Below, piece after piece: positions 26,921-32,331 of a DNA stretch of 64,000 nt. Under the pieces are notes generated by a model. It worked only from the letters and a program-made list of their open reading frames with translations. It made no database searches and was not told where the DNA came from. The DNA lies in IMG/VR virus record IMGVR_UViG_3300017824_001452, one strand, 5' to 3'. This stretch comes from a virus. Positions within the stretch are counted from its first letter, which is position 1. Each line of letters begins with the position of its first letter. The position numbers and the translations under genes are program-made.

Positions 26921-27139
26921 ATGTCAAACCCTAAAACTATCAAAGTTTTTGAGGACCTTGAGGCTTTTACAGCCTTCTGTAAAGAATACGGGTATAAGGT
27001 TAAACCCGAATGTCTTTACAACAAGAGTAGTCGCATTTGGCGACTGTATAGTCAACGATATTTGGCAGGGAAACCCGTCAGGAACATGTGGGAGATAGAT
27101 GGCCAGAAATACGAAAAAAGACGACACTACAAAAGGTAG
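26921..27139 (+). CDS. Small basic hypothetical protein
   Basis: AAGGA SD; packed ORF. Confidence 0.7.
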   Translation: MSNPKTIKVFEDLEAFTAFCKEYGYKVKPECLYNKSSRIWRLYSQRYLAGKPVRNMWEIDGQKYEKRRHYKR

Positions 27140-28142
27140 CAAGAAAATGACTGCTAAAAAAACTGTAGCAAAGAAGACGCCTGCTAAAAAGCCGGCAACT
27201 AAAAAAGCGCCTACAAAGACAGTCAAAAAGAAAGCACCAGTCGCAACAAAGAAAACTGTTGAAAAGGCAGTTGAACCGAAACCAGTCTTGCAAAAGATTG
27301 AAATGCCGAAAACTCCTACAAGAGAAAATGGCACAGTAGTCTTAGTAACAGGTGGTTTTGATCCTATGCATTCAGGTCATTTAGATTATATCGATGCCGC
27401 TAAAGAATTAGGTCGTGAGGAATCATGGCATGGCGCTAAAGTAGTAGTCGGTGTCAATAGTGATGATTGGCTTGTTCGTAAGAAAGGCAAGTGTTTTATG
27501 CCTGTCGAAGAACGAGTACGACTGCTATTAGCATTGCGTAATGTAGATCAAGTAATCACATTTGATGATTCGGACGATTCCAGCATGAATGCTATCCATA
27601 TTACTAGACATATGTTCCCGGATGAGCATATAATATTTGCTAATGGCGGAGATAGAACTAGTGCTAACATTAAAGAAATGAACTATCCAGATACAAATGT
27701 ATCATTTTCATTTGGAGTAGGTGGAGATAAAACTCAATCTAGTTCTAGTCTTTTAGGTGAATGGGCGGCTCCTCGAACTGAACGTGATTGGGGTTACTAT
27801 CGTGTACTGCATGAGTTTAGTAGAGAAGTCAAAGTTAAGGAACTAACAGTTGATCCTGGCGCATCGTTAAGTATGCAAAGGCATCAAGGCAGGGGAGAGT
27901 TTTGGTTTGTTGCTAGTGGTGTTGCTACAGTTTATACAGTAGCATATCCCAATGATCCTAAACGTGATATCGGTGACATTTTAGTTGGTAAGTTTGGTAA
28001 ACATGATTCAACTTGGATTCCAGTGAATGAATGGCACAGACTAGTTAATAACGAAAGTGAACCACTTACTGTATGTGAAATTCAATTTGGAGATAACTGT
28101 ATTGAAGAAGATATTGAACGAGTGTTTAGACCTAAGGGGTAA
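27099..28142 (+). CDS. HxGH cytidylyltransferase fused to mannose-6-P isomerase-type cupin, with Lys/Ala-rich N-terminal tail
   Basis: TGGFDPMHSGH, GVNSD, FANGGDR; RDWGYYRVL, SLSMQRH, WHRLVN, EIQFG..C.EEDIER. Start is 27099 or 27147. Confidence 0.85.
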   Translation: MARNTKKDDTTKGSKKMTAKKTVAKKTPAKKPATKKAPTKTVKKKAPVATKKTVEKAVEPKPVLQKIEMPKTPTRENGTVVLVTGGFDPMHSGHLDYIDAAKELGREESWHGAKVVVGVNSDDWLVRKKGKCFMPVEERVRLLLALRNVDQVITFDDSDDSSMNAIHITRHMFPDEHIIFANGGDRTSANIKEMNYPDTNVSFSFGVGGDKTQSSSSLLGEWAAPRTERDWGYYRVLHEFSREVKVKELTVDPGASLSMQRHQGRGEFWFVASGVATVYTVAYPNDPKRDIGDILVGKFGKHDSTWIPVNEWHRLVNNESEPLTVCEIQFGDNCIEEDIERVFRPKG

Positions 28143-28144
28143 TT

Positions 28145-29335
28145 ATGCGTAAACTATATTACATGGGCTTAGAACCCTACGAAGCAAGATACACATTACA
28201 ACTGCAACAGTGGAATACTGAAGCATTTGACAAACGTAAACTTGACTACGTAGTTGTTCCAGGTGAACTATTAACAACTGATCAGTCCATTGTAACAGGT
28301 CAAGTATTAGACGCACACGGTCGTTCATACTTTGGTATGTCACAAATGATGTCATTAGTTAAACTGATGAAAGAAGGCGAAGTAACAAGTGAAGACTGTA
28401 TCTTCTTTGAAGATATGTTTCAGCCAGGTATTGAATCACTTCCTTATATAATGAATCAAGTTTCAGAAGAACACAGACCTAAAGTCTTTGTAAGATGTTT
28501 AGCACAGTCTGTTGATCCAGATGATTTCGTACATGTCTGGGGCATGGAGAAATGGATGAGTTTGTATGAGAAAATGGTCAATGAATTTGTAACAGGTGTC
28601 TTAGCAACTAATGAAGAAATGGTTGCACATATGAAGATTGCAGGTTGGACTGCTCCTATCTATAATATTTCAGGTCTTGCATTTGGTAAAGAAGAAGTGC
28701 GTAGACGATTACTAGAACTAGAAGAATTCAAACCCTTTGAAGAACGTAAAATGCGAGTGGCGTTTACTGCTCGTTGGGACCAAGAGAAACAACCTGACTT
28801 TTATATGGATCTTATTGAAGAATGGTATGCTAGATATGGTAAGAAGCATGGTATTGAATTCTGTCTACTATCAGGTGGAGAGTTAAGAAGCAATAATGAT
28901 TCGTACATGAAACGTACAAAGAAATTGCAGAAACAAAAGAAACTAGTTATCCATGAGAATCTATCTAAGAATGATTACTATAGAATTCTGAACGATACTA
29001 GAGTTGTATTTAATTGTGCATTACAAGACTGGGTAAGTAATACAGTCTCTGAAGGTGATGCATTAGGATGTAATGTTTTATTCCCTGCGTACAGAAGTTT
29101 CCCTGAAACGTTTGCTAATGACAGGGATAGACTTTATATTCCATGGTCAATTGATGATGTGATCGATAAGATGCATCCTCTATTGGGTATTCAACATCAA
29201 AATCAAGGTAAAATTAGTGATTGGACTAATGGCACTATTGATCGTTGTATCGACATCATGCAAGGTAAAGGTGAACAATGGTTGCGTATGTCAGCCGATT
29301 ACAGAAAACATACTAGAGAAAACAAATTTAAATAG
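28145..29335 (+). CDS. GT-B glycosyltransferase (candidate DNA-modifying)
   Basis: FTARWDQEKQP, FNCALQDWVSNTVSEG..LGC..LFP.YRSFPE GT4-like C-terminal motifs. Confidence 0.75.
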   Translation: MRKLYYMGLEPYEARYTLQLQQWNTEAFDKRKLDYVVVPGELLTTDQSIVTGQVLDAHGRSYFGMSQMMSLVKLMKEGEVTSEDCIFFEDMFQPGIESLPYIMNQVSEEHRPKVFVRCLAQSVDPDDFVHVWGMEKWMSLYEKMVNEFVTGVLATNEEMVAHMKIAGWTAPIYNISGLAFGKEEVRRRLLELEEFKPFEERKMRVAFTARWDQEKQPDFYMDLIEEWYARYGKKHGIEFCLLSGGELRSNNDSYMKRTKKLQKQKKLVIHENLSKNDYYRILNDTRVVFNCALQDWVSNTVSEGDALGCNVLFPAYRSFPETFANDRDRLYIPWSIDDVIDKMHPLLGIQHQNQGKISDWTNGTIDRCIDIMQGKGEQWLRMSADYRKHTRENKFK

Positions 29336-29343
29336 GAATAATT

Positions 29344-30252
29344 ATGAAACATTTTAAACTACTAGTAGCAGTAGGATTTTTAAGTGCCATTGTTGGATGT
29401 GCGCCTTTTGAATCACCTGTTAAAGCACAAGGATCACAGACATTCAAACCTGGATTCACTATTGATTATACAGATTGCGGAGAAATAAGTTCTCCAGACG
29501 GAGCAAACTCAATGCAATTTGGCAAGCCAGATGAATCATGTGGTGGAAGAGTTGTCTCTGATCAAGGCTATAAAAACATTACACAAATAAGATTTACAGC
29601 AGATTTGAGTAGTGCTAATGGAAACTTTGTTACAAGTACTTTTTACATGGTAAACAATCCAACGAATCCTAGTTTACAACCTATCCATGACAACTATTGT
29701 GATGCAGGTGGAAACAAAGCAGAATGGAATTGCCAAGAAGTAGACTTCTTTGAAGTCAACAAAAACGTATTCTTTCAGCATACCATGCACATTGGTGATG
29801 GTAGTGTAAACGCTCCTCAAAACTTTCAGTTTAGTTACTCAACTACTGAAGATCAATGTTTTGTAAATCTAGCAGAAGGTACAGGGATTGTTTCTTGGAA
29901 CGGTATTGATATCAAACAACCAGTTGACTTTGTTGTTGACTTAGATGAAAACGGTATGACCGTAACGATTAAACAAGGATCAATTTCAACAGTTGTATAT
30001 CAAATGGGAGAAGGTTTTTCAGGGTCAACAACTTTTGATTCAGATCAAATTGCACGTTGGCAAGAAGGTAGAGCCCAAGGCTATTGGCTTAACTTAAGTC
30101 GTTGGCAAGATGATAAAGGTCAACCACCATGGTCACCGGGTGCGCCACAAGGCTTTTATAATTGGAGTTGTCCATGGGGTAGTGTCTGTGGAGCAACCGA
30201 TTCATACTTTAAAGTATATAATATTGAAGTAGACGCAGAAGATACCATCTAA
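29344..30252 (+). CDS. Lipoprotein with clan GH-B (GH7-like) glycoside hydrolase signature
   Basis: Lipobox AIVG-C; YCDA and [10 protein letters not shown] (ExDxxE). Confidence 0.65.
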
Positions 30253-30262
30253 GGAGTACGTA

Positions 30263-31396
30263 ATGCGAATTGAATCTGAGATTAAGTTAGACTTTTCAGA
30301 TGTATTAATTAAACCAAAGAGATCAACACTAGGATCACGTAAACAAGTACAATTAGAACGAGAATATACATTCAGAAATTACGTTCCCCCGGATATGTCT
30401 ATAGAAGCAATTAGACCTGAATCAGCACAATACTCTGGTATCCCTATTATGGCAAGTAATATGGACGGTGTTGGGACTTTTGATATGGCAAATAAACTTG
30501 CTGAATTAGGTTTGTTCACTTGTCTAGTTAAAACTTATAGTGTAGAACAATTAACACAATTCTTTTTAGAAACAAATGGCACAAGACGAGAGCATGTTGC
30601 CATGAGTATAGGTATCACTGACGATGATATTGAAAAACTAGACAGAGTAATGAAAGTTAGTGCTGTTAAATTTTTATGCATAGATGTTGCTAACGGTTAC
30701 TCAGAACGTTTTGCAGGAGTAGTCAAACGAATTAGAGAAAAGCATCCGTCATTAGTTATCATTGCAGGTAACGTAGTGACAGGTGAAATGACAGAGGAGT
30801 TAATATTAAGTGGAGCCGACATCGTTAAAGTGGGCATTGGGCCTGGTAGTGTTTGCACTACTCGCATTAAGACTGGAGTTGGGTACCCGCAGTTATCCGC
30901 AATCATGGAGTGTGCTGACGCCGCTCATGGTCTTGGTGGACACATCATTGCTGATGGGGGTTGTTCAAGTTCTGGAGATGTAGCAAAAGCATTTGGTGCA
31001 GGCGCTGACTTTGTTATGCTAGGTGGTATGTTAGCAGGACATGACGAAGGTGGCGGCGAAATCATAGAGAAAACTTACATCACTAATGAACAAGCACCAG
31101 CAACAAGTGCAGGCATTGGTAAAAAGGTCCAAAAACAATTTATTCAATTTTATGGCATGAGCAGTGATACAGCAAACAAGAAACACTTTGGTGGACTAAA
31201 AGATTATCGTAGTTCAGAGGGTCGAACAGTATCGATTCCTTATAAGGGCGATGTTGCTAACACAGTGCAAGACATCTTAGGGGGCATTAGAAGCGCCTGT
31301 ACTTACGCAGGAGCACGTAAACTTAAAGACTTGAGTAAGTGTACTACCTTTGTTAGAGTAAATAATCAATATAACAAAGTATTTGAAAACAATTGA
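30263..31396 (+). CDS. guaC: GMP reductase
   Basis: [52 protein letters not shown]. Confidence 0.95.
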
Positions 31397-32331
31397 AATC
31401 TCCAACGCATTTAATTACAGCAGGGTGTTCTTATTCACAACCTGCTAATAAAGATATCACATGGCCGTTAGAGTTACAACACCAAATAAAATCTTTAAGA
31501 TATGTAGCACATAAAGGTCATGGTGCCTCTGGTAATTCAATTATATCACGCAAAGTAATATCTACTGTACTATCGGCATTAGAACAGGGTGTATCACCTG
31601 ACCAAATGTTAGTAGGAATTATGTGGTCTGGTTGTGACAGACAATCACACTATTCTGAAAAATATCAACACAATTTTATGAAAACTACTGTAAGGGGAGG
31701 TCTACAAGATTACGATGTTTTTATAGATCAAATCAATACCGGAACATATGATTTTCCGGTATTTGTAGATATCACTGACAATTATGGCGAAATGAAAGAA
31801 TACGGCAATGTATTAAATCCTCTTTCAATAAGAAATCCAAACATACCTTGTCATTATATATTAAATCCGCATTGGAACGATGAACTGACTATAAAGTATT
31901 TTGAAAGTTTTGTTAACCCTGAAAAAGCAATTATAGAAACATGTGAACACATTTTAAGAACGCAATGGTTTCTTAAAGACAAGGGTATCAGATATTTTAT
32001 GACAGAATATGACCATGATGTTTTTACATATATGGGACCTCACTATCTAAGTAAAAATTATTCTGATCAATCAGAATGTAAAATAAACCCAGACGAGTAT
32101 ACAAAAGAAAAACATTTTGCACATTTAACAAACCCGGAAATTAATTATCTTTACAAAGAAATAGATAAAAATTATTGGTTACCAATAAAACATTTACAAG
32201 ATTGGGTAACTAACATAAGTGTATATAATCATAGAGAATCAGGTGATCCGCATCCAAGCACTGAGCAACATAAAGATTTTACGGAACAAATTATTGTTCC
32301 CTTTTTACTTGAAAAATATAATATACAGTAA
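31393..32331 (+). CDS. SGNH-like hydrolase
   Basis: TAGCSYS, GASGN, IMWSG.DR, DPHPS. Confidence 0.6.

Follow-up and report, generated by a model that had tools for sequence, protein, structure and literature searches.

A compact GH7-related family of predicted lipoprotein glycanases encoded mainly by uncultured phages

Fungi and other eukaryotes rely on glycoside hydrolases of family 7 (GH7) as their main cellulases, and the origin of the family is unexplained. GH7 enzymes have been reported as not found in bacteria (PMC3490864), and our literature searches found no description of a GH7-related family in phages or bacteria. Here, we analyzed an open reading frame (ORF) of 909 nucleotides (nt), P0001, on the plus strand of a 64,000-nt stretch of viral DNA (IMG/VR record IMGVR_UViG_3300017824_001452), referred to as the window. 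The window is phage DNA, with genes for a T4-family DNA polymerase (phrog_262, E 1e-197) and an ATP-dependent ligase, and its source is an uncultured giant ocean phage from marine plankton. The polymerase is closest to those of the jumbo phages Sinorhizobium phage Phosso, Agrobacterium phage Atu_ph07, and Serratia phage BF (43 to 49% identity). An earlier note, made from the letters alone, had proposed that P0001 is a phage lipoprotein with a minimal, GH7-like jelly-roll domain, and this is borne out by sequence profiles, template-free fold prediction, and the conservation of catalytic residues under purifying selection. Judged from its sequence, P0001 is quite likely an exported, membrane-anchored, retaining endo-β-glycanase of a GH7-related family that is made in the infected cell. 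The features on which this reading is built are the following.

29344..30252, plus strand: coding sequence of the GH7-like lipoprotein P0001, 302 amino acids (aa), stop codon included (ORF list and translation)
29344..29400, plus strand: predicted lipoprotein signal peptide, residues 1 to 19, with n-region MKHFK, a 12-residue hydrophobic core, and the lipobox I-V-G-C; Cys19 at 29398-29400 (translation and relatives)
29695..29703, plus strand: Y118-C119-D120, counterpart of the GH7 segment YCD(A/S)Q, present in 110/110 family sequences and aligned to GYCDAQ (8pof, 5w0a) and YCDAN (haptophyte-type GH7)
29731..29760, plus strand: catalytic motif C130-Q-E132-V-D134-F-F-E137-V-N139, aligned column by column to CNELDIWEAN (8pof) and CCNEMDILEAN (5w0a)
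29776..29790, plus strand: Q145-H-T147-M-H149, the GH7 segment that ends in the active-site histidine, aligned to QLAVH of 8pof
30079..30111, plus strand: G246-YWLNLSRW254-QD, counterpart of the GH7 strand GMVLVMSLWDD, aligned to GHVIVVSLWAS of 8pof

The earlier note had listed seven motifs in the order in which GH7 cellulases carry them, and all of them are found in the translation in that order: FTADLS (residues 84 to 89), TFYMV (99 to 103), YCDA (118 to 121), the catalytic motif (130 to 139), IDIKQP (188 to 193), a strand resembling GMVLVMSLWDD (246 to 256), and VYNIEV (291 to 296). Searches of Pfam, PHROGs, and NCBIfam with the single P0001 sequence gave no match, and a single-sequence phmmer search of the PDB returned no GH7 chain, so that the link to GH7 is visible only by profile or fold. 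The only PDB match of the single sequence, nuclease S1 (E 0.005), was rejected as spurious, being a helical protein aligned via low-complexity stretches. Relatives of P0001 were collected by a word-indexed search (39 sequences) and by an exhaustive phmmer search of 1.84 billion representative proteins (44 clusters). Their source labels read "hypothetical," apart from one "azurin" (P0037) that looks misannotated. Among the weakest phmmer matches in this library were P0079 (E 2.4e-4) and P0080 (E 3.3e-4), both of which score above the Pfam GH7 cut-off (E 4.7e-8 and 4e-25, respectively). The relatives of P0079 are marine-plankton proteins positive for the Pfam GH7 model PF00840, including one from the haptophyte Prymnesium polylepis.

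For profile comparisons, we used an alignment of 30 phage-type family sequences (A3), from which the GH7 proteins of the P0079 and P0080 type had been left out. With this profile, an hmmsearch of the PDB reached E 4.4e-12 for RsSymEG1, the small GH7 endoglucanase in 8pof, and E 0.0033 for the GH7 endoglucanase I (EG I) of Trichoderma harzianum (5w0a), versus E 0.4 for the top chain of glycoside hydrolase family 16 (GH16). The profile alignment to the GH7 structures pairs six of the seven motifs with GH7 counterparts: FTADLS with FDVDMS, FYMV with LYTV, YCDAG with YCDAQ, the catalytic motif with CNELDIWEAN, and GYWLNLSRW with GHVIVVSLW, with VDTSKPFTVVT on the GH7 side also paired. The seventh motif, the C-terminal VYNIEV strand, was paired when A3 was aligned by hhalign with PF00840-positive GH7s. 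This comparison, against 19 haptophyte-type sequences (A4), reached a probability of 99.3% (E 8.7e-21) over 204 columns, whereas the control against 19 GH16 domains from Pseudomonadota genomes gave 4% (E 0.011) over 47 columns.

An AlphaFold2 prediction on A3, run with no templates, yielded a mean predicted local distance difference test score (pLDDT) of 90.9 and a predicted template modeling score of 0.87. Only the signal peptide region was disordered (pLDDT <50), as expected for such a segment. Residues ~31 to 300 form a nearly all-β domain of ~270 aa with the β-jelly-roll fold of clan GH-B, and a different fold, which would have spoken against the earlier note, was not seen. The top structural match of the model is GH7. 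It overlaps with GH7 proteins of 321 to 445 aa over ~245 of its ~270 residues and with GH16 over ~192 residues, and GH16 entries start at rank 36 in Foldseek; the gap in Z score between GH7 and GH16 is small by itself, and the two are told apart by coverage and sequence profiles together. A Foldseek search of viral predicted structures gave fold-level matches only (E 1e-6 or worse, 8 to 13% identity), to giant-virus GH16s and chlorovirus proteins, and no annotated viral relative. The domain is shorter than the roughly 320 to 440 aa of GH7 enzymes with their set of cleft or tunnel loops and is without roughly a third of the loops of the smallest solved GH7 domain. According to the model, P0001 is essentially a GH7 core minus the cleft- or tunnel-forming loops. 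Since no material is left for tunnel-forming loops, we read the predicted active site as an open cleft with endo action.

In an alignment of 110 family sequences, Y118, C119, D120, C130, E132, D134, E137, Q145, H149, G246, and P265 are invariant (110/110), and R69, Y76, Y101, N139, T147, M205, and W254 are nearly so. N139 and T147 are each found in 109 of the 110 sequences and W254 in 105, while position 272 holds an aromatic residue (W, Y, or F) in 106. Pairwise dN/dS ratios (Nei-Gojobori) between P0001 and seven homologues ranged from 0.11 to 0.30 at dS values of 0.13 to >2. By homology to GH7, E132 would be the nucleophile that attacks the anomeric carbon and E137 the acid/base, with D134 as a helper that tunes the nucleophile. 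Y118, D120, and H149 are predicted to line and complete the -1 subsite. W254 is probably a sugar-stacking tryptophan; together with the aromatic residue at 272 it matches the GH7 residues that stack at -2 and +1 and may hold the sugars there. C119 and C130 likely form a disulfide, the counterpart of the GH7 bond that ties the YCD loop to the strand with the catalytic residues.

Bacterial lipoproteins are recognized by a basic n-region, a hydrophobic h-region, and a lipobox [LVI][ASTVI][GAS]C within the first 35 residues (a PROSITE PS51257-type rule). The N terminus of P0001 shows all three, with a lysine-rich n-region, a hydrophobic h-region, and a lipobox with Cys19. A lipobox was counted in at least 36 of 57 nonredundant family representatives, an underestimate because the search pattern missed "MSC" forms, and a strongly hydrophobic N-terminal segment is present in 48 of the 57. 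Representatives without a signal are mostly fragments or belong to one small signal-less clade. The style of the signal differs by clade, with LAAC(T/S)KTT in one large clade and LFSCNN or FIGCNN in another, and the clade of the window has its own lipobox style or, in some relatives, an uncleaved-looking hydrophobic anchor such as MKKAILTFVAAFVVGFVGYANY in place of the lipobox. P0001 is thus probably lipidated at Cys19 and anchored in a membrane. In Escherichia coli, an alanine rather than an aspartate after the lipidated cysteine directs a lipoprotein to the outer membrane. The residue after Cys19 is alanine and not aspartate, so that an outer-membrane destination would be expected under this rule. 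The lipobox suggests display on the infected cell, facing either the periplasm or the surface. The protein would be made in the infected cell, exported by the Sec pathway, and acylated at Cys19; a 12-residue tether would then keep it at a membrane of the host envelope, where oxidation of its cysteine pairs could take place.

A pattern-plus-tblastn scan located the family in at least 109 IMG/VR viral loci, 80 of which were fetched for study. Contigs with the gene reach 303 kb in IMG/VR, where one bin is labeled as a giant virus, and cluster members lie on contigs of up to 345 kb. Among GenBank phages, neither a tblastn search of 50,697 records with four divergent family members nor a megablast search with the 12-kb neighborhood of P0001 gave a match. 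Bacterial carriers are few: in 185,579 prokaryotic species, represented by one genome each, there were five matches, in four Halieaceae metagenome-assembled genomes and one planctomycete, all single copy. The Halieaceae copies are chromosomal, and the flanks of both the Halieaceae and the planctomycete genes consist of housekeeping genes (uvrB, purK, and genes for S-adenosylhomocysteine hydrolase, thiolase, and others), with no polysaccharide-utilization genes. PF00840 misses the Haliea genome that carries a family member; over 401 Pseudomonadota genomes it gave no matches, a negative of little weight because no control genome gave one either.

In a maximum-likelihood tree, the phage-type family and a sample of GH7 enzymes fall on two sides of one long branch (~1.7 substitutions per site) with 100% support; the tree was built by a quick method, long-branch warnings apply to it, and GH16 is too remote for use as an outgroup. 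The Halieaceae genes nest inside a phage clade, and the few bacterial copies look phage derived. P0001 itself groups with sequences of other low-GC contigs in a clade of nine members that has good support. Contigs with the gene form a lower-GC set (0.30 to 0.39, including the clade of the window) and a higher-GC set (0.40 to 0.46), and the active-site and cleft residues are conserved in both. Where a ribonucleotide reductase gene adjoins the family gene, the encoded NrdA proteins of the large clade are closest to those of T4-like phages of Xanthomonas, Ralstonia, and Stenotrophomonas (55 to 61%), and that of locus L070 is closest to Flavobacterium phage "immuto" (69%). These affinities agree with two of the signal-peptide styles and suggest that the hosts span at least two phyla.

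Two kinds of unusual family member came up in these searches. The bacterial versions P0043, P0054, and L085:5488-6861 (Planctomycetes bacterium TMED75) have 440 to 460 aa, and in them a dockerin-type module (Pfam Dockerin_1, E about 1e-4) precedes the GH7-like domain at the N terminus. P0081 joins an N-terminal family fragment to the C terminus of an ABC-transporter ATPase and is probably an assembly or gene-call chimera. Fused forms of 560 to 2000 aa, which might carry a carbohydrate-binding module, were not found, which is weak evidence.

To compare neighborhoods, the flanking ORFs of 85 loci were clustered. In about 50 of the 85 loci, the family gene abuts nrdA and/or nrdB, the genes for ribonucleotide reductase; at least three arrangements occur, among them a position between nrdA and nrdB, a position just after nrdB, and the orders nrdB-X-nrdA (L070) and nrdB-nrdA-X (L076), X being the family gene. 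The class Ia nrdA-nrdB junction (L017 to L068, L070, and L076; e.g., L062:3577-7913) thus suggests a recurrent insertion hot spot for the GH7-like cassette. In the loci examined, the gene was neither adjacent nor recurrently linked to tail-fibre or other identified virion structural genes; 38 loci have a PAAR-type gene ~1.7 kb downstream, which is never adjacent. No phage locus examined showed a linked transporter or sugar-catabolic partner.

Several further observations concern these loci. In the large, T4-like, nrd-linked clade, a gene ~4 kb downstream of the GH7-like gene (L018:11073-11978; family f13, also in L017 to L022, L031, and L045) encodes a protein of 300 aa that is homologous to the porins of Gram-negative bacteria (Pfam Porin_4, E 9e-22). 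It lies close to the gene for a PAAR-motif protein (L062:8453-8722). Outer-membrane porins are unusual among phage-encoded proteins. Several contigs hold a second copy, tandem or partial, of the GH7-like gene or of its partner (L014:5232-6816, L012, L013, L016, and L069:6007-7548). The partner in question is a lipoprotein family of ~230 aa, A5, with the motifs HEGxYAFCGASGAxPTG and GPLNEAAVPLRKA, whose gene adjoins the GH7-like gene in seven loci resembling Flavobacterium phages, as listed below.

L072:7595-8293, A5 gene beside the GH7-like gene
L074:7590-8366, likewise
L075:7690-8385, likewise
L078:4769-5485, likewise
L080:4769-5485, likewise
L071:8107-8800, likewise
L069:6940-7545, likewise

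In L076:6004-7536, A5 is fused to the C terminus of the GH7-like protein. Adjacency and fusion together make A5 a likely functional partner. Neither Pfam nor the PDB yielded a sequence match for it, the AlphaFold model (pLDDT 35.5) was too poor to use, and it is absent from the window.

In the window, P0001 stands in a tightly packed row of nonstructural genes.

27099-28142, plus strand: cytidylyltransferase fused to a ManC-type cupin, further upstream (Pfam)
28145-29335: glycosyltransferase (GT)-like gene upstream of P0001 (weak Pfam GT1 matches)
29334..29337, plus strand: Shine-Dalgarno-like AGGA, 6 nt 5' of the P0001 ATG and overlapping the stop codon of the GT-like gene (direct sequence reading)
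30263-31396: GMP reductase gene guaC downstream of P0001 (Pfam IMPDH/GMP reductase, E 3e-70)

Inside the P0001 ORF there is no rival ORF of ≥50 aa on either strand. The gaps of 8 nt to the GT-like gene and 10 nt to guaC suggest that P0001 is probably cotranscribed with its nonstructural neighbors, and a sigma-70 scan found no promoter-like site above chance directly upstream of it. The neighbors of the window are common to only the four closest loci (L001 to L003 and L010), for which reason a functional link of P0001 to the GT-like and nucleotidyltransferase-cupin genes was rejected. The product of 27099-28142 carries a Lys/Ala/Pro-rich, histone-H1-like N-terminal tail of ~70 residues (Pfam HC2, E 0.002), which is odd on a sugar-nucleotide enzyme. 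Downstream of guaC, an ORF of 312 aa with a TTG start (31393-32331, plus strand) overlaps the guaC end by 4 nt. Its product has a weak match to DUF6071 (E 0.009) as its sole hit and is 31 to 41% identical across the four syntenic loci, whose neighboring products share 60 to 90%.

By analogy with GH7, the substrate of P0001 may be a β-1,4- or mixed-linkage gluco-type chain. As to its purpose, we tentatively favor, at somewhat less than an even chance, a phage-specific cutting of a host envelope polysaccharide, be it capsule, exopolysaccharide, an O-antigen-type receptor, or a periplasmic glucan. Such cutting would leave the infected cell and its debris unable to adsorb further phages and would let the progeny escape. 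We favor this role because the great majority of the family is viral and bacteria hardly ever carry it, because the few bacterial copies look phage derived and lie outside nutritional loci, and because the gene forms a single-gene cassette in nonstructural regions, like other phage genes for envelope modification or exclusion. Several observations weigh against this picture or parts of it. Pfam GH7 (PF00840, gathering score 27 bits) gave no match to P0001 at E up to 1 and missed 33 of its relatives, its sole match among the 34 members of the set A2 being P0079, a true GH7; this silence places the family far from the characterized enzymes, so that its specificity could differ completely. The counterpart of GH7 Gln175, the glutamine after YCD(S/A), is Gly122 in P0001. 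The sigma-70 scan of the window was at chance level (29 sites versus 28 expected), and the T4-type late box TATAAATA did not occur from 12.6 to 32.3 kb, nor was the window enriched for it; we infer the timing of P0001 expression from gene position only. Furthermore, the cleft residues are alike in phages of two apparent host phyla, which is easier to reconcile with a common glycan of the environment than with a host-specific receptor, and the planctomycete relatives carry dockerin-like modules, which are typical of secreted polysaccharide degraders.

These last two points feed into the main alternative, in which the gene is an auxiliary metabolic gene for foraging: the anchored enzyme would degrade abundant β-glucan, dissolved or particulate, outside the infected cell, such as laminarin, algal cellulose, or mixed-linkage glucan, and would feed the metabolism of the host and through it the replication of the phage during a long jumbo-phage infection. 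Besides the conservation of cleft and active site across host phyla and both GC sets and the dockerin-like modules, one clade has Bacteroidota-type lipoprotein signals, which recall the surface glycanases of polysaccharide-utilization systems, and the nearest eukaryotic relatives are secreted GH7 glucanases. We nevertheless consider foraging unlikely. A generally useful enzyme would be expected in bacteria, yet it was found in the genomes of only 5 of 185,579 species, there amid housekeeping genes without transporters or other carbohydrate-active enzymes, and the phage loci show no linked transporter or sugar-catabolic gene. In addition, most lipoproteins of Proteobacteria face the periplasm. 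Overall, the distribution leans toward phage-specific use. Conservation across host phyla would also be accounted for by a universal substrate such as peptidoglycan; P0001 might cut its strands, or a glucan layer, from the periplasm as a tethered endolysin or a helper in outer-membrane disruption. The protein appears exported and tethered as such a role demands, and the uncleaved-looking anchor of some relatives recalls signal-anchor-release (SAR) endolysins. However, we know of no clan GH-B enzyme that cleaves peptidoglycan, the neighbors of the gene belong to nucleotide metabolism and are no holin or spanin-like genes, the cell might lyse too early if an active wall hydrolase were exported constitutively, and a lipid anchor is not releasable as a SAR domain is. 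A part in lysis is therefore very unlikely.

Other explanations concern the nature of the protein itself. Many tail and decoration proteins of phages have jelly rolls of the concanavalin-A type, as the fold-level matches illustrate, and P0001 might be a noncatalytic, lectin-like glycan-binding protein or a virion-associated protein that keeps a glucanase-like scaffold. This is highly improbable: complete invariance of three catalytic carboxylates, the histidine, and the YCD segment would be unexpected for a lectin, assembly into virions in the cytoplasm is incompatible with a Sec/lipoprotein signal, and the 85 loci show no recurrent linkage to identified virion structural genes, the PAAR-type gene of 38 loci being never adjacent. 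It is improbable in the extreme that P0001 is an ordinary bacterial jelly-roll enzyme, such as a GH16 laminarinase or lichenase, with GH7-like motifs that are convergent or clan-wide. GH16 does share the fold and the ExDx(x)E motif, it appears in the Foldseek ranking, and GH16 annotations are among the top viral fold-level matches. Against this, Pfam GH16 (PF00722) gave no match to P0001 at E up to 1; hhalign, the PDB profile search, and the structural overlap all came out far better for GH7 (99.3% versus 4%, E 4.4e-12 versus 0.4, and ~245 versus ~192 residues); and the YCD...C disulfide pair with the following histidine is a GH7 feature. The placement in a bacterial GH16 subfamily that the earlier note had named as a possible counterargument was thus not seen. 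Its suggestion of a GH7/GH16 intermediate has to be narrowed, the family being intermediate in size only and clearly on the GH7 side in sequence.

The reading as an anchored GH7-related glycanase that acts on the host envelope can be widened. P0001 would then stand for the first GH7-superfamily lineage of prokaryotic viruses and a new CAZy-level family of clan GH-B, and phages of several bacterial phyla would use a lipid-anchored enzyme that destroys receptors or trims envelope glycans for catalytic superinfection exclusion and progeny protection; in this full form, we regard the proposal as doubtful. If it were true, GH7, a family that textbooks treat as eukaryotic, would have deep relatives in the phage gene pool, which bears on the origins of eukaryotic cellulases. 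The family is in any case widespread in uncultured aquatic phages, yet none of the models tested from Pfam, PHROGs, and NCBIfam picks it up. If P0001 is active, it would represent a minimal GH7 scaffold of ~270 aa of relevance to enzymology and CAZy classification, and an exported, membrane-anchored glycanase would join the small set of phage proteins that act on the envelope from within. It would also correct surveys of viral auxiliary metabolic genes, which are now blind to a GH7-like family.

In terms of classification, P0001 shares with GH7 a homology to bona fide GH7 domains, the clan GH-B fold, and the combination of ExDxxE, histidine, and YCD/Cys pattern, while a PF00840 match and a domain of 320 to 440 aa with its loop set are absent. 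With GH16 it has the jelly roll with ExDx(x)E in common, without homology at the level of family model or profile. Given the silence of PF00840 and a domain of only ~270 aa, we file the P0001 family neither as ordinary GH7 nor as GH16: by its sequences, it is a sister family of GH7 within clan GH-B that is dominated by phages and had no annotation before.

Among the closest characterized enzymes is RsSymEG1 (8POF), a "smaller form" GH7 endoglucanase of termite-gut symbiotic protists with ~15% identity to P0001. RsSymEG1 is a secreted eukaryotic protein of 321 aa that is recognized as GH7, whereas P0001 has a ~270-aa domain, is a predicted lipoprotein, and is missed by PF00840. The nearest PF00840-positive GH7s are the small haptophyte-type proteins (P0086, i.e., Prymnesium polylepis EP00966_P179430, and the marine metagenome proteins P0079 and P0082 to P0126). 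Like the phage, they come from marine plankton, but they have 310 to 430 aa, extra cysteine-rich segments typical of GH7, and no lipobox. The fungal GH7s (Trichoderma reesei Cel7B/EG I, 1EG1; T. harzianum EG I, 5W0A; and Cel7A, 1CEL) have 12 to 17% identity to P0001, 370 to 440 aa, and long loops around a deep cleft or tunnel. They act on cellulose and have a glutamine after YCD(S/A) where P0001 has a glycine. GH16 β-glucanases (laminarinases, lichenases, and plant EG16) resemble P0001 in the clan GH-B jelly roll, ExDx(x)E, and small size, but lack the YCD/C disulfide segment and any significant sequence relation to it; in marine Bacteroidota, they are often lipoproteins.

Among phage proteins, Llp of phage T5 and other early receptor-inactivating lipoproteins are functional analogues only, being nonstructural, exported, and active on the host envelope. 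Llp is a small blocker of receptor binding, with no enzymatic fold and no homology to P0001, and to our knowledge phages have no established strategy in which an enzymatic lipoprotein destroys the receptor. Virion-borne depolymerases (tailspike and tail-fibre enzymes) are encoded in the tail module, have no export signal, and are usually trimeric β-helices or fibre-appended domains; P0001 differs from them by its Sec/lipoprotein signal, its neighbors, and its jelly roll.

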